A DNA stretch of 64,000 nucleotides. Origin: an uncultured Bdellovibrionales bacterium (GTDB lineage: Bacteria; Patescibacteriota; Minisyncoccia; Moranbacterales; UBA1568). Below the pieces are notes generated by a model. That model saw only the letters and a list, made by a program, of their open reading frames with translations, had not been told where the DNA came from and did not search any database. Position numbers and translations under genes: made by a program. Shown here in pieces: positions 2,868 to 40,853 of the stretch. The stretch lies in the NCBI GenBank assembly GCA_964612055.1, contig CAZTBI010000003.1:40268-104267 (forward strand). Direction: 5' to 3'. Each line of letters starts with the position of its first letter. Position 1 is the stretch's first letter.

Positions 2868-3983
2868 TTAATCATTCAATAAAACAGAAAGGTTTGCTGC
2901 GCACCCCTCCCAAGAGAATCTTTTGATATTTTCCCTACCTTTTGAAATTATACCATTTCTCATGCCCTCGTCCGAAAGGAGCTTCTGAGCCCCTTCGGCG
3001 ATACTTTCTACACTTGCAGGGTCCACAAATACCGCTCCATCCCCTGCTACTTCGGGTAAAGATGACGTACTAGATGTCACCACTGGTACCCCGACACTCT
3101 GAGCTTCCAAAACCGGTATGCCAAAACCTTCGTAGAGCGTTGGGAAAAGAAAAACATCAGCATTTTGAAGGAGTGGCCATTTCTCTTCTTCGACTACGTA
3201 TCCTTTCTCGATAATGGCGCTCTGATATTTGCTCTTTGCTATCTGTTGTTTGATTCTATCGTATCCATAGCCTGGCTTCCCAACCAAGAGAAGTTCGTGT
3301 GGTATTTGGTACTTTTCTTTCAGCATTTCAAACGCCTCGATAATTCGCACAATATTTTTTCGTTCTTCCAAGCGCCCAATAAAAAGTAAGTATGGTTTCT
3401 CCGACTTTTTTATTGATTGTTGATTGTTTTCTGGTAATTGTTTTTCGTAGCCTTCGGAGACAACGCGAATCTTTCCTTCGGACACTCCATAGAAACCCGT
3501 CACATCACGCTTGGTATTTTCTGAGACACAGATAACCGTGCTCGCTACCTGACAAGAAAACATAATCGAGTAGTGCATGTAGACCCGCTCCCAAAAAGAG
3601 TAGGCTTCTTTACAAAACTCATACTCCAAACCATGGATGGTGACGATCGTCTTCTTAGGATGGATGAGCGGTACCGTGTGCGCTGGCACAAACAAAACGT
3701 CCGGCGTATGAAAAAGCATTTCCAGTGATAATCCTATCTGGGTCCAAAAACGTGGCGCCCATAATCCGCGCACTGTCCAATTTCTCGGCAACTCAAAATC
3801 AATATCTGGAATTTTCAAAGACATACGACCGTGAGCAAAAGAAAGTTTCTTACGAACGTACAAAACCACCTCCGCATCACGAGGCAGCTCATCACGCAGG
3901 TGCTTGATCACCTGATAGCTATACTCTTCTATCCCGGTTCGTCGTTTGAGAAACGCCCGTGACGCGTCAATTCCGATGATCAT
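2868..3983 (-). CDS. GT4-family glycosyltransferase
   Basis: EGFGIPVLEAQSVGVPVVTSSTSSLPEVAGDGAVFVDP. The track start at 4055 is a TTG inside the repeat element; the likely start is MIIGIDASRAF at 3983. Confidence 0.8.
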   Translation of the reverse strand: MIIGIDASRAFLKRRTGIEEYSYQVIKHLRDELPRDAEVVLYVRKKLSFAHGRMSLKIPDIDFELPRNWTVRGLWAPRFWTQIGLSLEMLFHTPDVLFVPAHTVPLIHPKKTIVTIHGLEYEFCKEAYSFWERVYMHYSIMFSCQVASTVICVSENTKRDVTGFYGVSEGKIRVVSEGYEKQLPENNQQSIKKSEKPYLLFIGRLEERKNIVRIIEAFEMLKEKYQIPHELLLVGKPGYGYDRIKQQIAKSKYQSAIIEKGYVVEEEKWPLLQNADVFLFPTLYEGFGIPVLEAQSVGVPVVTSSTSSLPEVAGDGAVFVDPASVESIAEGAQKLLSDEGMRNGIISKGRENIKRFSWEGCAANLSVLLND

Positions 3984-4012
3984 AGAAATTCCGGTAAATT
4001 TCGAAAGCTTGG

Positions 4013-4194: not shown

Positions 4195-5223
4195 CTATTT
4201 CGCCAGCATGATACTGCGCTTGTAGAGCTCGAGGTTTTCGAGCACAATCCCCGTCCCCTTCACCACGCAAAATGCTGGATCATCCGCCACATAGCACGGC
4301 ACATTGATCGTCTTTGATATCAGCTGATCGAGATATTTCAGTTGAGCCGTTCCGCCAGAAAGCACCATCCCTTTATCCATAATATCCGCTGCCAATTCCG
4401 GCGGCGTTTCCTGAAGCACCTGCTTGATGACATTGATAATCTCACGCAGTTCATCCTGGATCGCTTCGGTGACCTCGTTCGACGAGACCGTGATCGTCTT
4501 CGGCAAACCACCCATCAGGTCCCGACCCCGAACATCCATGTGCTCCTCCTTCACCTGAGCGATAGCTGACCCGATCTTCATCTTGATCTCCTCAGCCGTT
4601 CGATCACCGATCGCCAAACTGTGTTTACGCTTGATGTAATCCGAAATGGCCTGATCGATTTTGTTCCCACCAACACGAGCACTGTGAGACGCCACCACGC
4701 CACCAAGAGAAATAATAGCAATCTCCGATGTCCCGCCGCCAATATTGATAATCATATTCCCCTGCGCTGTATGAATCGGAATACCCGCCCCGATAGCAGC
4801 AAGGATCGGCTCTTTCACTACATAGGCAGCCTTGGCTCCAGCTTTCAGTGCCGCATCGATGACCGCGCGTCGTTCAGTCGAAGTAATACCAGCAGGAATA
4901 GACAGTACCACTTCTGGACGAAAGAAACGCACTCTACCACCCACCTTGTTCAAAAAGTATTTAAGCATCGCCTCGGTAATACGGTAATCCGCGATAGCAC
5001 CATCACGCAGTGGCTGACTCGCCACAATCGTATCCGGTGTGCGACCGAGCATTTCCTTGGCTTCATTACCGACCGCGAGCACCTTGTTCTCTGTCAGTGA
5101 AATAGCAACTACCGAAGGTTCGTTAATCACCACACCTTTCCCTGGCACAAAGACCAAGGTATTGGCTGTACCCAAGTCGATCCCGATTTTCCGCAAAAAC
5201 ATGGATTTCATATCAAAACTCAT
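4195..5223 (-). CDS. mreB: rod-shape-determining actin homologue MreB
   Basis: IGIDLGTANTLVFV N-terminal actin fold; length 342 aa. Confidence 0.9.
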   Translation of the reverse strand: MSFDMKSMFLRKIGIDLGTANTLVFVPGKGVVINEPSVVAISLTENKVLAVGNEAKEMLGRTPDTIVASQPLRDGAIADYRITEAMLKYFLNKVGGRVRFFRPEVVLSIPAGITSTERRAVIDAALKAGAKAAYVVKEPILAAIGAGIPIHTAQGNMIINIGGGTSEIAIISLGGVVASHSARVGGNKIDQAISDYIKRKHSLAIGDRTAEEIKMKIGSAIAQVKEEHMDVRGRDLMGGLPKTITVSSNEVTEAIQDELREIINVIKQVLQETPPELAADIMDKGMVLSGGTAQLKYLDQLISKTINVPCYVADDPAFCVVKGTGIVLENLELYKRSIMLAK

Positions 5224-6485
5224 GACAGATCCTTTCTTTTTATCTCTGCGCCAATTTTTTGTAGGCGTTCTTCGATACGTTCATAACCACGATCTACCTG
5301 ATAAATTTCTTCGATTATGGTTTTCCCTTGAGCCGTCAGAGCCGCAATGATGAGAGCCGCCCCCGCTCGCAAATCATAGCTCTTGATCATCGTTCCCATA
5401 AGCTTTGTTTTTCCGGAAATGACTACTTGATGTGGATTGAGCACTTCAATTTTTCCACCCATCTTCTGTATCTCTGGAACATAGTTGAAGCGGCCCTCGA
5501 AAAGCGTATCAAAAACAAATGTCTCACCCTCCGCCTGGGTCGCCAAGACTCCAAAAGGCGCCTGCACATCAGTCGGCAATCCCGGATAGACGCGCGTATC
5601 GAGTTTCGTAACAGCACGTAACTTTTTTGCTGGCACGACGGTAATCTCATTTTTCTTCACGGAAAAATCAGCACCAAATTCACGGAGCTTTTCTAAGACC
5701 AGATCCAGATGTTCTTCACGAGCGTTTTTCACCGTGATCGGACTACCGGTCGCTACACCCAGGATAAGAAACGTAGCGGCTTCATTGGCATCAGGAATCA
5801 CCGCATGTTTCACACCTTTCAATTTTTTTGTTCCTTGAATTTCCAAGACATTCGTTCCGAGACCTTTGATCTTGGCTCCCATGGCCACAAGAAATTTTCC
5901 CAGATCCTCGACATGCGGTTCACAGGCAGCGATTTTGATAATTGTCTTCCCTGGCATACTGGCCGCAAGCATCATAGCATTCTCTGTCCCAGTCACTGAA
6001 AACTCGCGCAGTACCACCATAGCCGGATGACGCTTGGTAGCATCAACCACATAGCCTTTTTCTTTTGCTTGTACTCGCACGCCCATTTTCTGCAAAGCAT
6101 CGAGATGAGTATCCACCGGACGAGCACCGATGAGACAGCCACCGGGACGATAAAAAGAAAAATGATCGAAGCGCGCGGCCAGTGACCCCCATAGAAGAAT
6201 CGACGAACGAAGTTGTTTCACCAGTTCCGTATCCATTTTTTTCGGATCGATATTTTTAGCGGTGATCGCGACCGTGCGTTTCCCACGCCACTTCACTTCC
6301 GCTCCCAAGCTTTCCAAAATTTCGAGCATACGAAAAACATCCTCAATCAAAGGGATATTGCTAATCACACAGGTCTCTTTGGTCAGAAGCGTGGCAGCCA
6401 AAATCGGCGTCGTGGCATTCTTTGAACCACAGACGATTATCTCGCCTTTAAGCCTTTTTCCACCCTGTATTTCAAAAACTTCCAT
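5220..6485 (-). CDS. murA: UDP-N-acetylglucosamine 1-carboxyvinyltransferase
   Basis: MEVFEIQGGKRLKGEIIVCGSKNA matches the MurA N-terminus; ~420 aa. The track start at 6521 is a TTG that is actually the -35 element. Confidence 0.9.
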   Translation of the reverse strand: MEVFEIQGGKRLKGEIIVCGSKNATTPILAATLLTKETCVISNIPLIEDVFRMLEILESLGAEVKWRGKRTVAITAKNIDPKKMDTELVKQLRSSILLWGSLAARFDHFSFYRPGGCLIGARPVDTHLDALQKMGVRVQAKEKGYVVDATKRHPAMVVLREFSVTGTENAMMLAASMPGKTIIKIAACEPHVEDLGKFLVAMGAKIKGLGTNVLEIQGTKKLKGVKHAVIPDANEAATFLILGVATGSPITVKNAREEHLDLVLEKLREFGADFSVKKNEITVVPAKKLRAVTKLDTRVYPGLPTDVQAPFGVLATQAEGETFVFDTLFEGRFNYVPEIQKMGGKIEVLNPHQVVISGKTKLMGTMIKSYDLRAGAALIIAALTAQGKTIIEEIYQVDRGYERIEERLQKIGAEIKRKDLS

Positions 6486-6492
6486 ACTGGCT

Positions 6493-6521
6493 AGTATAGC
6501 CCAGGGTAAGGCACTTTTCAA
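6493..6521 (-). promoter_or_regulatory. sigma70-like promoter of murA (leaderless arrangement)
   Basis: Minus strand TTGAAA-17 nt-TATACT. The -10 ends 7 nt upstream of the murA ATG, with no Shine-Dalgarno. Confidence 0.6.
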
Positions 6522-6693
6522 GTCTCGGGAAATTTTAAACGGCTGGGAGAAGTTTTTCTCGGCCAGCCGTGATTTTTGCCATTCTAATGGCGAGAGTATG
6601 GGAACATACCCTGCTTGTTTTTGTTTTGGTTTTTATTTTTAAAGGACTTGTGGGAAATTTTCCCGAGAGAAAGCACTGTTAATGCACTCTCTC

Positions 6694-6735
6694 GGAAAAA
6701 AGAAAACGGGTGTTTCACCCCCTGGAAACACCCGT
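6694..6735 (-). terminator. rho-independent terminator after trxB
   Basis: Minus strand ACGGGTGTTTC-loop-GAAACACCCGT followed by TTTTCTTTTTT. Confidence 0.8.
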
Positions 6736-6785
6736 CCTCTTACTTGTAAATACAGTATAGCACGTTTTTTCACTCTTGTAAAGAG

Positions 6786-7709
6786 CTACTTCCCCTTTCG
6801 GACGAAATCGTACGCTGAAAGTGCGGCCGTCACACCAACACCGGCGGAAATATTATTTTGCTTGTAGGGAAGATCGGTCGCATCACCGGTCGCAAAGATG
6901 CCCGGTCGCGATGTCGCAGCAGTTCTCGCATCAACAATAATCTCGCCGCGCTCATTGAGATCTATGATGTCTTTCACAAATTCCGTGTTCGGCACCATTC
7001 CAATTTCTACGAATACGCCATCAAGCATGATATCTTCCGGTGTATTCGTTTCGCTATTGAGAGCTGTGATACCTGTCACCTTTCCCTCCCCCAAGATCGC
7101 CTGGGTCGTCATGTGGTAACGGACGCTCACTTTTGGTGAAGCGAGAATCTTTTCTTGGGTCACGGCATCACCCTTCAATTCTCCGGAACGAACAAGGAGT
7201 ACGATCTCTCCGGCATACGGCATGAGATCCTCTACTGCCTCCAAAGCAGAGTTGCCACTTCCAACGACTGCCACTTTCTTATTACGGAAAAATGGCGCAT
7301 CACAAGTCGAACAAAACACAACACCCTTCCCAACGAACTGTTCTTCACCTGGTACACCCAGATGACGATGTCGTCCACCGGAAGCAACGATGATCGTCTT
7401 TGTTTCGTAACGCTCACCATTTTCAGTTTCTACGATATAACCACCTTCGGTTCTTTCCGAAACCTTGCTCGCTTTGGTTCCAGTTTTTATCTCAATACTT
7501 TCCTGAGCCCGTAAATGCTTCTCAAGCATCTGCCCAAATTCATAGCCCGGTACCGTCACTGTCCCGATCCAGTTTTCAATGGAAGCTGAAACGACTGACT
7601 GACTCAAAAAATCCTGCGTCAAAAAAAGTGTCTTCATCTGCTTGCGTGCCGTATACACCCCCGCTGCTATCCCTCCGGGTCCCCCACCGATGATAATACA
7701 ATCGTACAT
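6786..7709 (-). CDS. trxB: thioredoxin-disulfide reductase
   Basis: FAD site GGGPGG, redox-active CSTC (CxxC), second NAD(P)-binding site VVGSGNSALE; 307 aa. Confidence 0.85.
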   Translation of the reverse strand: MYDCIIIGGGPGGIAAGVYTARKQMKTLFLTQDFLSQSVVSASIENWIGTVTVPGYEFGQMLEKHLRAQESIEIKTGTKASKVSERTEGGYIVETENGERYETKTIIVASGGRHRHLGVPGEEQFVGKGVVFCSTCDAPFFRNKKVAVVGSGNSALEAVEDLMPYAGEIVLLVRSGELKGDAVTQEKILASPKVSVRYHMTTQAILGEGKVTGITALNSETNTPEDIMLDGVFVEIGMVPNTEFVKDIIDLNERGEIIVDARTAATSRPGIFATGDATDLPYKQNNISAGVGVTAALSAYDFVRKGK

Positions 7710-7735
7710 AGATTTATTTAAAAAATGGTTATTGT

Positions 7736-7777
7736 TTAAAAAAAGAAGGAGGTTCCGTCAAACACGGTTGCCTCCTT
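7736..7777 (-). terminator. rho-independent terminator after the SDR gene
   Basis: Minus strand AGGAGG-caaccgtgtttgacggaa-CCTCCT followed by TCTTTTTTT. Confidence 0.7.
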
Positions 7778-7781
7778 TTCA

Positions 7782-8546
7782 TCAACGATAGCCTCCGTCA
7801 ATCATGAGATTTTGGCCATAGATATACGAACCACCAGAACCCGCAATGAAAGCAACGAATGCTGCCACTTCTGCCGGCTCGGCAAAACGACCACTCCAGA
7901 TTTTAGCCATCTCAGCTGCCCGCTCTTCATCTGGCAAGGTATCGTTCATGCTCGTATTGATCCAACCAGGTGCCACACCGTTGATACGAATACCGAACTT
8001 GGCATAGTACTCTGCGATGGTACGCATCATGTGCGCTTGCGCAGCCTTGGAAGCATCGTAGTGAACCGAAATCTGTGACTGAGAATTCACTCCATTGGTT
8101 GATGTGATCAACACGATCGAACCCTTGGTACCAGCGTCTCTCATACGGTTGGCAATGACTCTGGTAGAGAAGAAACAGCCGTGGACATTCACATCAAAAA
8201 CCTTCTCCCATTCGTCCTGAGTCTGTTCTTCAAGCGGAGTATTAGGTGAGGTGCCGATAGCATTCACTGCTACCGATATCTCCATTCCTGTAGCCGCCAC
8301 AGCCGCGGTCAGGAAATCAGCTACTTCTTTTTCATCACGCTGCTGCATAGAGCCGATGAAGACCTTCACGCCCAAAGCTTCAATCTCTGCCTTCAGAGTT
8401 TCAGCAACCTCTTGGTTGCGACCATAGGTGAAGCTCACGGCGCTAGCGCCATTGGCCACCAAAGCTCGAACAACTTCTGAGCCGATACCGCCGCTTCCAC
8501 CAAGAACGAGAGCGTGACCGGTGACTTTTGAAAGGTACTTGTCCAT
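7782..8546 (-). CDS. short-chain dehydrogenase/reductase (SDR) family oxidoreductase
   Basis: Rossmann motif LVLGGSGGIGSEVVRAL; start chosen at MDKYLSKVTG because the track start at 8645 overlaps the csoR-like gene. Confidence 0.75.
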   Translation of the reverse strand: MDKYLSKVTGHALVLGGSGGIGSEVVRALVANGASAVSFTYGRNQEVAETLKAEIEALGVKVFIGSMQQRDEKEVADFLTAAVAATGMEISVAVNAIGTSPNTPLEEQTQDEWEKVFDVNVHGCFFSTRVIANRMRDAGTKGSIVLITSTNGVNSQSQISVHYDASKAAQAHMMRTIAEYYAKFGIRINGVAPGWINTSMNDTLPDEERAAEMAKIWSGRFAEPAEVAAFVAFIAGSGGSYIYGQNLMIDGGYR

Positions 8547-8584
8547 ATGTGTTTTCTCCGTTTGGTTTGGGTTACAAAAAGGTA

Positions 8585-8833
8585 CTATTGCATTTTGAAA
8601 AGGGATTTGAGATAGGCTTCGTCGATCTTCTTCTTGCCATCCCACTTGCAGGCGATGTCATCCTTCAAGAGCTCTACCCCGAGCATGGCTACCGCTTCGC
8701 GGATCGCTGTTACCTGGGTGATCACTTTGAGACAATCCTGCTTTTCTTCCACCATACGCCGAATACCCTTCAACTGTCCTTCGATGCGCGCGATACGCGA
8801 CAGGACGGGACTGGTTTTTTTGGTCGTTGGCAT
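8585..8833 (-). CDS. CsoR/RcnR/FrmR-family (DUF156) sensor-type transcriptional repressor
   Basis: 82 aa. RIARIEGQLKGIRRMVEE ... C ... DIAC helical-bundle signature. Metal-ligand positions read x-C-D-C (Asp where CsoR has His). Palindromic operator lies immediately upstream. Confidence 0.75.
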   Translation of the reverse strand: MPTTKKTSPVLSRIARIEGQLKGIRRMVEEKQDCLKVITQVTAIREAVAMLGVELLKDDIACKWDGKKKIDEAYLKSLFKMQ

Positions 8834-8845
8834 AGGCTTAGAAAA

Positions 8846-8866
8846 ATATACCCTCTGGGGGTATAT
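8846..8866. promoter_or_regulatory. CsoR-type operator palindrome overlapping the -10 of the csoR-like promoter
   Basis: ATATACCC-TCTGG-GGGTATAT, a 21-bp inverted repeat. It closely resembles the published GTA-rich/C-G tract CsoR operators (TACCC...GGGTA) from memory. It overlaps TAATAT (-10, ~8863-8868), with TTGACC (-35, ~8886-8891) 17 nt upstream. Confidence 0.7.
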
Positions 8867-9087
8867 TACACCAAGAGTCAAATCTGGTCAAGAGGGACTA
8901 AAAAGAATACAAGAGGCAAGTATTTTCTCTTCCCAAGAATTCTCTCAGGCGAGCCTGGAGCCAAAAGCATGGCCTTTCCCACCTCGGGAAAGTTTTGGCG
9001 GAAGATTCAGAAAAAATCACGCTGGGATTTTCTCGGCATGAGAGAGTTGCTTGGGAGCGAGAAGGCTATACCCCCTAATTTTTGACG

Positions 9088-10491
9088 TTACAGCGCTTCC
9101 ACCGCTTTGCGAAATTGTTCCCCACGGTCAAATTCGTTCTTGAAAAGCCCGAAACTGGCCGCTCCTGGCGAGAGGAGAACGACGTCTCCAGGCTCTGCTC
9201 CGCGTGTCGCCAATTCCACTGCTTTTTCCATACTTTCCACCACTTCAAAAGATCGTCCCTTTTCCTCTGCCGGCAAAAGATCCTGCAATGCCTGAAGTAA
9301 CTTCTCTGTCCCTTCTCCTTTGAAGAGCACCAATCCTTTGGAGCGGGTCAAAATTTCTTTGGCAAGCGAAGTAAAGTCGAGACGCTTGTCGCTCCCACCG
9401 GCGATGAGAATGACTGGTTCCGAAAAAGAACGGAGTGCCGCGACAGCAGCATCTGGAATAGTGGCCGCCGTATCATTGTAATAGACAATGCCCTTTTTCT
9501 CAGTAACTTTTTCGAGACGATGCGGAACTCCCGGAAAGTTTTTTATTCCAGCTCGCACTTCCTTCACCGACAAACCAGCAGCTAGCGAAGCGAGAGCGGC
9601 CAAAAGGACATTGGAAGTATTGTGCTCCCCTTTGAGAGGGATATCAGCAAGTGGTAGAAGAACACTTTCCTTCCCTTGCTCGGAAACCAAGAGGGTCTCA
9701 TCAGCAAGCCACGCTCCATCTCCCTCGATACCGTGTTTCACTGAAGAAAAAAGTATGGCTCCCGGAGCGTCCTGTACCATCGTACGCGCCTCTTCATTAT
9801 CGAAATCAGCGATTACGATATCACTTGGCTTCTGAAAACGAAAGATGTTTCCTTTGTCAGCTTGGTAGGCCGCCATTGTCTTGTAGTAATTCAAATGATC
9901 AGGATAGATATTGGTCAACACCGCGATGTGCGGACTTTTCTTTAGTGACGAGAGCGCCGAAAGACGCCACGAAGAAAGTTCGAAGACGACTACGGAATCT
10001 TTGATCACCCGATCGAGCATCGAAAGTACGCCCACCTGACTGATACCAACCCGCACCACTTGCTTCCCGGCCTGCTCGAGAATGTGGGCAATGAGAGTAG
10101 CAGTCGTTGTTTTTCCTTTACTCCCCGTCACACCAATAATCGGCGCTTTACAGAAACGAAAAAACAAACTGGAGTCCATCTCCACGGGGATGTGATGATC
10201 CAAGGCCAATTTCACGTATTCATTGGTCCAAGGGATAACCGGATTCTTGATCACCATGTCGACTCGAGTGAAATCTTCCGGTCGATGCTGACCCAAGACA
10301 TAGGTAACGTTCTTGTAGGAAGTAAGTTTTTTGAGTGACGGCGCCAATTCCTCGCGACTCTTGATATCAGTAACGATGACCTCCTTGGCTCCCTCTCGTA
10401 CCAAATACTGCACCGTCCCGACCCCGCCCATGTTTAAACCGAGTCCGAAAACGGTAACGCGCTTATTTTTGAAAAAAGATTCTGTAGCCAT
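9088..10491 (-). CDS. murD: UDP-N-acetylmuramoylalanine--D-glutamate ligase
   Basis: N-terminal VTVFGLGLNMGGVG Rossmann fold, Mur ligase ATP site GVTGSKGKTTT. Confidence 0.9.
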   Translation of the reverse strand: MATESFFKNKRVTVFGLGLNMGGVGTVQYLVREGAKEVIVTDIKSREELAPSLKKLTSYKNVTYVLGQHRPEDFTRVDMVIKNPVIPWTNEYVKLALDHHIPVEMDSSLFFRFCKAPIIGVTGSKGKTTTATLIAHILEQAGKQVVRVGISQVGVLSMLDRVIKDSVVVFELSSWRLSALSSLKKSPHIAVLTNIYPDHLNYYKTMAAYQADKGNIFRFQKPSDIVIADFDNEEARTMVQDAPGAILFSSVKHGIEGDGAWLADETLLVSEQGKESVLLPLADIPLKGEHNTSNVLLAALASLAAGLSVKEVRAGIKNFPGVPHRLEKVTEKKGIVYYNDTAATIPDAAVAALRSFSEPVILIAGGSDKRLDFTSLAKEILTRSKGLVLFKGEGTEKLLQALQDLLPAEEKGRSFEVVESMEKAVELATRGAEPGDVVLLSPGAASFGLFKNEFDRGEQFRKAVEAL

Positions 10492-39391: not shown

Positions 39392-40853
39392 ACGACTGAG
39401 AAAGAAAAAATTTCTGCAAAACAAACACTCCTATCACAAGGAAACTGTACCACACAACCACGTGGACGACGCCGAAATTCTCTACTGATATCTTGGCTCC
39501 ATCAATACTGCCCAACCACTCCACCGAACGAGTAATCGTCGAGAGGATGCCCCATGCAAGCCAGGATAAGACAAGGTGTGCGCCAGGGACAACCAGAAAG
39601 AGGAGCGCGGCACCGAAAGCACTCGCCATGGCAAAAGGGACCAGTATCACCAGAAAATTTCCAAAGATGATAAGTGGCGAAAATGTATGGAACGAAAAAA
39701 GGATAATGGGCAATACGAAAAGTTCGACTGCGATCGTCATAAGAACAACCTCTCCAATATGTCGTGTGAGAAACCCGAAGCGAGCGAGGCGTTCCTGATA
39801 GGGAGCACTCCACAAAATACCCAGGGTCGCCAAAAATGAAAGTTGGAATCCCAAATCGTAACGCAAGAGGAGCGGATTGAAAAAGAGCATCGCACCGCAA
39901 GCAAACAAGAGAGCGTTAATCGGCTGCGCCAGTCTCCCTGTTTGGAGTGCCACAAAGACGACTGCAGCCATAGCGCCAGCCCGAGACGCTGAAGCCGGCA
40001 TACCAATCATTACAATAAAGAATGCTATCCCTACCAAAGCCGCCCAGACCGCCTGCTTGCGCCAAAGACCGAAAAATAGGCCAAGCCACAAAAGCATCTC
40101 CGCAATAAGGGTAATATTGTATCCTGATACCGCAATCATGTGAGAGAGTCCTACGGCAGCAAAGTCCTCTTTCAACGCTCGTGGCAGATAGTTATCACCA
40201 CCGAGGAGTAACCCCTTAGCCAGTCCGGCCTCTGGTTCAGAGAGCGTCCGCGAAAGAGCCCGCTCCAGGATATGCTTGGGAATGTACAACCACGAAAACA
40301 ATTTCCCCTCTCTATCCTCTGGAAGGAGCACTGCATCCTTGGCCCGTACGCAGGTATAGCCAATGCCATCTTTGGCCAAAAACATTCGGTAATCAAACTG
40401 ATCGTTGAAATTTTTCGGCCGCTCAAGCGCGCAAGTGAAAGCAAGCCTGGTTCCAGCCGTACCAGTGAAAGATAAAGGGGCCTGCCACAAGATCCGTTCT
40501 TTCGGACACTCTTTACTCTCACATCTTTCGAAACGAAGTATCGTGTGTCGGAAAAAATCCTTATCCTCTGGATCAGAAATAACACGCACTTCACCACGAA
40601 CCGGTTGTTCGAAAAGTGGCAGTGTCTGAAAAACTACCTGCTTCGTCAAGGCAAGGTGAGCCCCTCCGCACCAGACAAGAAAAAAGAGGCCACAGAAAAT
40701 GACCTCCTTTTTCGGAAACGCCACCGTCACCGCTACACCGAGAGCACTTCCCATGAGGAGAAGTGGGACGAGCGGGAGAATAAAAAACGACCCACAAAAT
40801 ATACCGATGATGAAAGAAAGAATACTCCAAAAAAATACCTCATCTTTCTGCAT
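39375..40853 (-). CDS. comEC: ComEC/Rec2 membrane channel (DUF4131 plus competence domain), 5' part
   Basis: LSHMIAVSGYNITLIAE competence-domain motif; about 10 TM segments. Stops 17 nt into the MBL-domain ORF, next to an A6T3 homopolymer tract. Confidence 0.75.
   Translation of the reverse strand: MQKDEVFFWSILSFIIGIFCGSFFILPLVPLLLMGSALGVAVTVAFPKKEVIFCGLFFLVWCGGAHLALTKQVVFQTLPLFEQPVRGEVRVISDPEDKDFFRHTILRFERCESKECPKERILWQAPLSFTGTAGTRLAFTCALERPKNFNDQFDYRMFLAKDGIGYTCVRAKDAVLLPEDREGKLFSWLYIPKHILERALSRTLSEPEAGLAKGLLLGGDNYLPRALKEDFAAVGLSHMIAVSGYNITLIAEMLLWLGLFFGLWRKQAVWAALVGIAFFIVMIGMPASASRAGAMAAVVFVALQTGRLAQPINALLFACGAMLFFNPLLLRYDLGFQLSFLATLGILWSAPYQERLARFGFLTRHIGEVVLMTIAVELFVLPIILFSFHTFSPLIIFGNFLVILVPFAMASAFGAALLFLVVPGAHLVLSWLAWGILSTITRSVEWLGSIDGAKISVENFGVVHVVVWYSFLVIGVFVLQKFFLSQSYERPV

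Follow-up and report, generated by a model that had tools for sequence, protein, structure and literature searches.

A probable CstR-like dithiol repressor associated with thiol-reducing genes in Moranbacteria and related Patescibacteria

What does a repressor of the copper-sensing CsoR family respond to when it contains no histidine and precedes redox genes rather than copper efflux genes? This question was raised by a 64,000-nucleotide stretch of DNA (positions 40,268 to 104,267 of contig CAZTBI010000003.1, GenBank assembly GCA_964612055.1; hereafter the window), in which a small CsoR/RcnR-family gene located at 8585..8833 on the minus strand is followed by a short-chain dehydrogenase/reductase (SDR) and by a flavoprotein of the thioredoxin reductase (TrxR) family. 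The lineage concerned is of the Moranbacteria type and belongs to the Patescibacteria, or Candidate Phyla Radiation (CPR), known for tiny genomes and for hardly any cultured members or characterised regulators. Furthermore, the model based on four fingerprint positions (W-X-Y-Z) leaves open how inducer specificity is set within the CsoR family, of which several large clusters remained uncharacterised after a family-wide network analysis (PMC8643695). In our literature searches, neither a CsoR-family regulator of trxA/trxB nor the occurrence of the family in Patescibacteria was found described. Comparing the protein, its operator and its gene neighbourhoods with those of its relatives, we consider it likely that the repressor is an autoregulated, CstR-like dithiol switch governing thiol-reducing machinery and NAD(P)-linked dehydrogenases, and not copper efflux.

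The open reading frame (ORF) extends on the minus strand from an ATG at 8833-8831 to a TAG at 8587-8585, encoding 82 amino acids plus the stop. As announced by the original prediction, which was made from the sequence alone, its product is a DUF156 protein, matching Pfam PF02583 (Trns_repr_metal/DUF156) with an E-value of 7.7e-18 and 65 bits for a cut-off of 22.8. A longer, 98-aa ORF starting at a TTG (8881) was rejected, as the promoter would fall inside it and as the orthologues begin at the ATG. The best sequence matches in the PDB were the CsoR entries 4m1p and 4adz, the solved relatives being CsoR, CstR, InrS and FrmR, and a Foldseek search of the repressor model against the PDB returned FrmR, CsoR, CstR or InrS for all its top matches, a resemblance that holds at the family level only and does not separate CsoR, CstR and FrmR at residue level. 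The AlphaFold2 (AF2) monomer model displays three helices (residues 9-29, 34-57 and 72-78), the C-terminal one being very short (...IDEAYLKSLFKMQ). In addition, the RLXR motif (R13-I-A-R16), Gln40 and Cys34 were invariant in the orthologue alignment, and RLXR together with Gln is needed for operator binding by the CsoR of S. lividans (PMC3902906). Scores against NCBIfam models reached 39 bits for FrmR (cut-off 133) and 36 bits for RcnR (cut-off 138). Profile, fold, helix-2 cysteine, RLXR plus Gln and operator type all fit, and on this comparative basis the protein is a member of the CsoR/RcnR superfamily.

Its sensing site is distinct from that of the metal sensors. The repressor is devoid of any histidine and its only cysteines are Cys34 (QDC, position X, codon 8734-8732 on the minus strand), located where helix 2 begins, and Cys62 (DIAC, position Z, codon 8650-8648, minus strand), 28 residues apart, versus 29 in canonical CsoR/CstR relatives (e.g. 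L056, L071 and L054). Aligning the clade profile with ten canonical C-H-C/C-x-C members by hhalign, we found the helix-2 core to be ungapped up to Ile60, placing Asp59 (codon 8659-8657, minus strand), and not Asp58, opposite the copper-ligand histidine at position Y. After a one-residue deletion, Cys62 pairs with the canonical second cysteine at Z, resulting in an x-C-D-C pattern with a Y-to-Z spacing of 3 versus the usual 4. This pattern was conserved throughout the 222 proteins of the clade, in which both cysteines (X and X+28) were always present and X+25 was always Asp or Glu. Since X+25 is invariant in this sense and X+24 (Asp58 in the window protein) varies between D, N, E, G, S, H and others, Asp59 is identified as the conserved site residue independently of the hhalign result. 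The residue preceding the first cysteine, Asp33 in the window, was D, E, G or similar across the clade and never Tyr, and the canonical C-H-C relatives recovered by the same searches carry 'YC' at this place. The Cys-Asp-Cys ligand set of the original prediction was thus retained for both cysteines and for an Asp at Y, and refined as to the aspartate, Asp59, and to the spacing of 28; the alignment of the W-X-Y-Z positions that it had put forward as a check indeed returned Asp, not His, at Y.

Upstream of the gene, a perfect palindrome, ATATACCC-N5-GGGTATAT (8846..8866, either strand), was recognised as a putative operator of 21 bp with two 8-nt arms, a 5-nt centre (TCTGG) and a TAC-N9-GTA core at 8849-8863, corresponding to the 'type 2' CsoR-family site. 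Sequence reading and promoter scanning located a -35 hexamer TTGACC at 8886..8891 and a -10 hexamer TAATAT at 8863..8868, both on the minus strand and separated by 17 nt; 4 nt of the -10 hexamer fall within the left operator arm, and the start codon lies 12 nt past the palindrome. Position, promoter overlap and likeness to CsoR operators had all been read correctly beforehand, and the arms are moreover identical to those of the CstR operator of S. mitis, ATATACCCTTATGGGGTATAT (PMC8643695). Even with 3 mismatches allowed, this palindrome had no other match in the window, for 0.05 expected from shuffled sequences. With one mismatch in a relaxed core, two further matches appeared (17298 and 39157), for a chance estimate of ~2 (64,000 positions x 30 x 4^-10). 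A lone half-site, TATACCCCCTA, was also noticed on the plus strand at 9066-9079, just past the murD stop and ~200 nt upstream of the operator; having no partner arm, it is probably a chance occurrence.

The regulatory region was preserved far beyond the window. A TACCC-N5-GGGTA site with at most one arm mismatch stood directly upstream of the gene in 50 of the 51 orthologous loci with upstream DNA, and other sites of this type were nearly absent from the ~500 kb of sequence flanking these loci. Alignment of 52 distinct sequences on the site revealed information peaks solely at TTGAC, TAATAT and both arms of the operator, with free drift in its 5-nt centre and in the promoter spacer. In nearly all Moranbacteria-type loci, TTGAC is found 16-18 nt from a -10 hexamer kept as TAATAT/TAxTAT. 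In Wolfebacteria, the same operator lies between the two hexamers, filling the spacer that separates TTGACA from the -10, and still overlaps the promoter, a shift in position by which the regulatory logic is retained. Because operator and promoter are footprinted together across the orthologous loci, these comparisons provide strong evidence for the autoregulation that had been anticipated, presumably through promoter occlusion. The use of the operator as a classifier of the inducer was rejected, since TAC-N9-GTA/ATACCCC architectures serve copper CsoRs and CstR alike, for instance the copper-sensing CsoR of S. lividans on TATACCCCCTAGGGGTA-type sites (PMC3902906); a site type common to both argues for repressor binding and not for an inducer class. 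In one Moranbacteria locus (L039:4350-4420), an extra promoter (TTGACA...TATAAT) carries two tandem operators, ATATACCCCCATGGGGTAC and GTATACCATAAGGGGGTATAG, ahead of a 145-aa gene without Pfam match and a shikimate-dehydrogenase-like gene (4454-4891 and 4866-5870). Both genes form an insert that separates murD from the repressor gene, and they are probable additional members of the regulon.

The genes found behind the repressor in its relatives shared a common theme. A TrxR-family flavoprotein, 63-93% identical to the window copy, comes after the repressor gene in 42 loci of the Moranbacteria type, either as the next gene, across a gap of 10-93 nt (10 loci), or behind a glutamate/leucine-type dehydrogenase (GDH; 21 loci) or an SDR (11 loci, in addition to the window). 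One locus (L029) contains the GDH alone and another (L004) an SDR followed by the end of the contig. The SDR is thus found in 12 related loci, about a quarter, and is elsewhere replaced by a GDH or absent, so that by gene order it is an accessory, variable member of the operon and the TrxR-type gene the constant partner. In Wolfebacteria, the csoR-like gene is followed by a thioredoxin (WCGPC) and by a canonical TrxR (CATCDG), and further arrangements comprised trxA and a malic enzyme (L048), a GDH and a canonical trxB (L047) and, in three more contigs with unrelated flanks, trxA, trxA with a Pyr_redox_2 gene, and a GDH with a Pyr_redox_2 gene. Across these contexts, the association of a thiol-disulfide reducing system with an NAD(P)-linked dehydrogenase appears constant, and the repeated co-occurrence of a TrxR-type gene and such a dehydrogenase suggests that the supply of reductant is co-regulated. 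The redox part of the predicted "redox, persulfide or aldehyde sensor" is therefore supported by thioredoxin-system genes in several independent contexts. By contrast, none of the loci examined contained copA/copZ, rcnA, frmA/frmB-type or P-type ATPase/HMA genes in the operon, and none of the ~55 loci examined contained genes for a rhodanese/sulfurtransferase, persulfide dioxygenase, sulfide:quinone reductase (SQR) or TauE.

Two neighbourhoods deserve separate mention. In the patescibacterial contig with the GDH and canonical trxB, a second CsoR-family gene (L047:3021-3293) encodes a canonical C-H-C protein ('KYC...HLNTC') and adjoins a DsbA-like thioredoxin-fold gene (3298-4011), two paralogues with different sensing sites being thereby found inside 3 kb; as a canonical CsoR is encoded on the same contig as the atypical one, a division of labour between paralogues is implied. 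In an Anaerolineae contig (L057:4352-4899), a CsoR-family gene with an x-C-Y-C pattern and a spacing of 29 is likewise directly followed by a thioredoxin gene, and the pairing of CsoR-family repressors with thioredoxin may extend outside Patescibacteria.

Within the window itself, the genes succeed one another on the minus strand in the order murD, repressor, SDR, flavoprotein, terminator, murA and mreB. The SDR gene (7782..8546, minus strand) encodes a classical oxidoreductase of 254 aa (Pfam adh_short_C2, E=2.8e-44) that reached no NCBIfam equivalog cut-off. It starts 38 nt after the repressor stop, and since RNA folding revealed no hairpin in this spacer and a GGAG precedes the SDR start, co-transcription of the two genes is well supported. 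The flavoprotein gene (6786..7709, minus strand; Pfam Pyr_redox_2), beginning 72 nt after the SDR, encodes 307 aa with a CSTC redox motif. It scored 308 bits against positions 213-511 of AhpF (NCBIfam TIGR03140) and 264 bits against TIGR01292 (cut-off 343), remaining below the curated cut-offs of both AhpF and TRX_reduct, and its best PDB matches were AhpF entries (1hyu/1fl2), the N-terminal domain of AhpF being missing. By these comparisons, it is a TrxR-family disulfide reductase, nearest to the C-terminal module of AhpF. The SDR-trxB operon announced by the original prediction was accordingly found as two co-directional genes, with a 'trxB' nearer to the AhpF module and a terminator-like hairpin ahead of it.

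This hairpin, followed by seven U residues, is located at 7738..7777 on the minus strand between the SDR and flavoprotein genes (stem 7777-7746, -15.5 kcal/mol, z = -2.7), and it makes a single csoR-SDR-trx transcript uncertain in the window. A GC hairpin with a T-run was found at the same junction, with differing stem sequences, in every SDR-type locus covering it (L001, L002, L003, L006, L009, L012, L013, L014, L016, L017 and L018), and was absent from the GDH-type and direct loci. From its confinement to SDR-type loci, the SDR seems to have been acquired as a cassette that brought its own terminator or attenuator along, and the hairpin could act as an internal attenuator. For its expression, the window flavoprotein may rely on read-through, or else on a promoter that escaped recognition. 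An independent promoter was sought and rejected, the lone consensus match (7722-7693) overlapping the start codon and none being convincing; an AT-rich TAAATA-like hexamer lies ~5 nt before the flavoprotein ATG in SDR-type loci and is speculative as a promoter. Downstream, a strong intrinsic terminator precedes murA (6695..6741, minus strand; 17-bp stem and U-run, -25 kcal/mol, z = -3.6). A scan of 6500-9200 against Rfam yielded nothing relevant, no second TrxR was found within the window, and no copA/copZ was found near the repressor, whose neighbours are murD, SDR/GDH, the TrxR-type gene and murA. In addition, nearly all long ORFs of the window (1-64000) lie on the minus strand, suggesting a long co-directional gene array, and no tRNA gene was detected.

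Homologues sharing 70-95% identity with the repressor belonged to metagenome-assembled genomes (MAGs) of Candidatus Moranbacteria/Moraniibacteriota and carried generic annotations only, and a profile built from more divergent members recovered Wolfebacteria and unclassified Patescibacteria. As found here, the clade is confined to Patescibacteria (Moranbacteria, Wolfebacteria and relatives), according to the sequences recovered. Several third-party annotation (TPA) bins titled 'uncultured Bdellovibrionales' or 'uncultured Gammaproteobacteria' (L002-L006, L008, L009, L011-L014 and others) also carry these loci, with proteins 85-95% identical to, and syntenic with, those of Moranbacteria, and their taxonomic labels appear to be mistaken. 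In a library of 1.84 billion representatives at 50% identity, 6238 proteins matched the clade profile (E<=1e-3), of which a few dozen share its short C-terminus ('...YLKxLFK'). Within this wider branch, the second cysteine was found at X+27 (P0229, P0235, P0243 and P0255), at X+28 or at X+29 (P0238 and P0250), and one representative (P0228) has no second cysteine. Such a drift is more readily reconciled with a redox-active thiol located at a flexible helix end than with a metal ligand of fixed position. Another non-canonical register was encountered in a CsoR-family set, mostly from proteobacterial MAGs, with the second cysteine at X+24 ('...GCMIEQG', '...IACLVEG') rather than X+29 (L055, L060, L062-L064, L066, L068, L069 and L072-L079, of which L074 and L078 are Thermoanaerobaculia).

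The circuit that we envisage for a dithiol switch at this locus would operate as follows. The reduced repressor, expected from its family to be a tetramer with two tetramers per site, would bind the TAC-N9-GTA palindrome at 8846-8866. This palindrome extends over part of the -10 hexamer and over the likely transcription start, so that the bound repressor would occlude RNA polymerase there, and it could also stop read-through from murD. The sensing site would form between subunits, Cys34 opening helix 2 of one and Cys62 closing helix 2 of the other, with the invariant carboxylate of Asp59 replacing the copper-ligand histidine. Under disulfide or oxidant stress, or in the presence of reactive sulfur, the DNA would be freed once a disulfide, or a di- to tetrasulfide bridge of the CstR kind, links the subunits. 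There are precedents for both chemistries, intersubunit di- to tetrasulfide links preventing CstR from binding an operator whose arms are identical (PMC8643695), and the Thermus thermophilus regulator TTHA1953 losing DNA binding upon disulfide formation (PMC10318464). Derepression would concern the repressor gene itself, the adjacent NAD(P)-dependent dehydrogenase (here the SDR) and, by read-through of the hairpin, the AhpF/TrxR-type flavoprotein, and the reductase system thus induced would return the sensor to its reduced state, closing a negative feedback loop.

Several observations weigh against this proposal. The cysteine pair is set in an unusual register, with 28 residues from X to Z for the usual 29 and 3 from Y to Z for the usual 4, and the crosslink geometry is accordingly conjectural. 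The AF2 model, confident for helices 1 and 2, has a predicted local distance difference test (pLDDT) score of 54-74 at residues 58-71, too low to fix the register of Cys62. The hairpin and U7 ahead of the flavoprotein resemble an intrinsic terminator, so that this gene is perhaps partly or wholly uncoupled from the repressor promoter, and the 64-kb window contains no thioredoxin gene. Finally, the operator type is shared with copper-sensing CsoRs and hence uninformative on the inducer. A first alternative is a bona fide CstR, specific for per- and polysulfides, which would serve to detoxify sulfide together with reactive sulfur species, with the flavoprotein and thioredoxin as persulfide reductases. 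Judging by sample names, the homologues come largely from groundwater and wastewater metagenomes, habitats in which sulfide is plausible. The protein also displays the x-C-x-C pattern with a non-histidine Y and the 'DC' preceding the first cysteine as in CstR, its operator has the arms of the S. mitis cst operator, and the CstR of E. faecalis regulates a CoA persulfide reductase of the pyridine-nucleotide-disulfide family. Because thioredoxin-type proteins also reduce persulfides and remove sulfane sulfur, according to two reports (PMC6196236, PMC6831875), such a specificity keeps some likelihood. We nevertheless regard it as unlikely, the cysteine register being 28 versus 29, position Y being a conserved carboxylate where characterised CstRs have an asparagine (N55 in SpCstR), and the sequence being no nearer to CstR than to CsoR. 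The co-regulated genes are moreover trxA, trxB and NAD(P)-linked dehydrogenases, and the gene content that marks CstR neighbourhoods (PMC8643695), namely rhodanese/CstA, CstB, SQR, CoA persulfide reductase (CoAPR) and TauE, was encountered neither in the window nor in the ~55 related loci.

A metal sensor, binding Cu(I) or another thiophilic metal at Cys-Asp-Cys and inducing thiol-reducing genes against metal-induced thiol stress, appears considerably less probable still. Most PF02583 clusters are metal sensors, the operator resembles copper-CsoR sites, CstR retains Cu(I) binding in vitro, and the clade member of the malic enzyme locus (L048) has a histidine at X+24 (C-H-x3-C). The window protein, however, contains no histidine at all, and is thereby devoid of both the x-C-H-C triad of Cu(I)-CsoR and the H-C-H-H or H-C-H-C set, with its N-terminal histidine, of RcnR/InrS. 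Position Y is Asp or Glu in all 222 clade proteins, and loss of the histidine at Y renders CstR copper-blind. The second-shell Tyr before the first cysteine (Tyr35 in MtCsoR) is replaced, no copA, copZ, rcnA or other metal efflux gene belongs to the conserved operon, the drift of the second cysteine between 27 and 29 in the wider branch is a poor match to a fixed coordination geometry, and L047 carries its canonical C-H-C paralogue separately. The original rejection of a copper sensor is well borne out by these features. Of all the readings, an FrmR-like sensor, in which a detoxifying SDR would be switched on once formaldehyde, or some other electrophile, had linked Cys34 to the amine of Pro2, seems to us the most improbable, with hardly any weight. 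The window protein does start with MPTTKK, its Pro2 lying 32 residues before the cysteine, for 33 in FrmR; FrmR is among its top partial NCBIfam matches and the SDR gene comes next. In the clade, by contrast, Pro2 was found in 19 of 222 proteins, the N-terminal length varying even among close orthologues of the same operon, the FrmR score of 39 bits compares with a cut-off of 133, and the histidine at Y expected from the P-C-H-x pattern is absent. The SDR is present in about a quarter of the loci, the TrxR-type gene being the constant partner, and no frmA/frmB-type gene was found, all of which disfavours the aldehyde branch of the earlier proposal.

A more specific version of the dithiol switch can tentatively be put forward, at somewhat less than even likelihood: the whole clade may represent a dedicated disulfide-stress regulator of Moranbacteria, Wolfebacteria and related Patescibacteria, in which a non-canonical Cys...(Asp/Glu)-x-x-Cys site turns on both the thioredoxin system and a dehydrogenase that supplies NAD(P)H (a GDH, a malic enzyme or an SDR), and is then reset by the former. 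If true, this would be the first CsoR-family protein with trxA/trxB as its primary regulon, would fill with a CsoR fold the role that Spx, RsrA or OxyR play elsewhere, and would be among the few regulatory circuits assignable in the CPR. The non-metal range of the family would be widened from sulfur and formaldehyde detoxification to the control of core thiol reduction. The locus constitutes a complete and testable circuit, with its promoter, operator, sensor residues and targets, kept across at least two patescibacterial lineages. Furthermore, the sensing site is a natural variant, His/Asn being replaced by a carboxylate and the second cysteine being displaced by one residue, and it could inform how inducer specificity is determined.

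Among known systems, the closest likeness is with the CstR proteins of S. aureus, E. faecalis, S. pneumoniae and S. mitis (clusters 4 and 10 of the PF02583 sequence similarity network; PMC8643695), which belong to the same fold family. Both have two conserved cysteines, a non-histidine Y, an acidic residue before the first cysteine ('RDC' in SpCstR), identical 8-nt operator arms around a 5-nt centre and an operon including a flavoprotein disulfide-type reductase (CoAPR in E. faecalis), and by analogy an intersubunit Cys-Cys (poly)sulfide crosslink would be expected. The window clade differs by its spacings (28 and 3, instead of 29 and 4), by Asp/Glu instead of Asn at Y and by its very short C-terminal helix. 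Its regulon comprises trxA, a trxB/AhpF-like flavoprotein and dehydrogenases, whereas that of CstR comprises sulfurtransferases, persulfide dioxygenase and SQR; found here solely in Patescibacteria, the clade is no more similar to CstR than to copper CsoR. The copper CsoRs of M. tuberculosis, B. subtilis, S. lividans and G. thermodenitrificans form the group that provides the best PDB sequence matches, and have in common with the window repressor RLXR plus Gln and the autoregulatory TAC-N9-GTA type 2 operator overlapping the promoter, but not the C-H-C triad, the second-shell Tyr or a nearby copZ/copA. TTHA1953, the sox regulator of Thermus thermophilus (PMC10318464), is likewise a non-metal CsoR-family repressor with two cysteines whose intersubunit disulfide lowers DNA binding; by contrast, its Cys39 and Cys68 are 29 apart, its operator (TACNNTACNNNNGTANNGTA) is without a G/C tract and its regulon is sox.

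The division of labour between CsoR and CstR in S. aureus finds a parallel in the two paralogues of L047. Thiol switches controlling trxA/trxB are represented elsewhere by Spx in Firmicutes, RsrA-SigR in Actinobacteria and OxyR, which are respectively an activator binding RNA polymerase, an anti-sigma factor and a LysR-type activator, from families unrelated to CsoR. As in these systems, a thiol sensor would induce the thioredoxin system by which it is itself re-reduced; unlike them, the patescibacterial circuit would act by simple occlusion by a repressor. Fold, operator and probable thiol chemistry are thus familiar, and the register of the sensing site, Asp/Glu in place of His/Asn, the regulon and a clade found here in the CPR only set this repressor apart.

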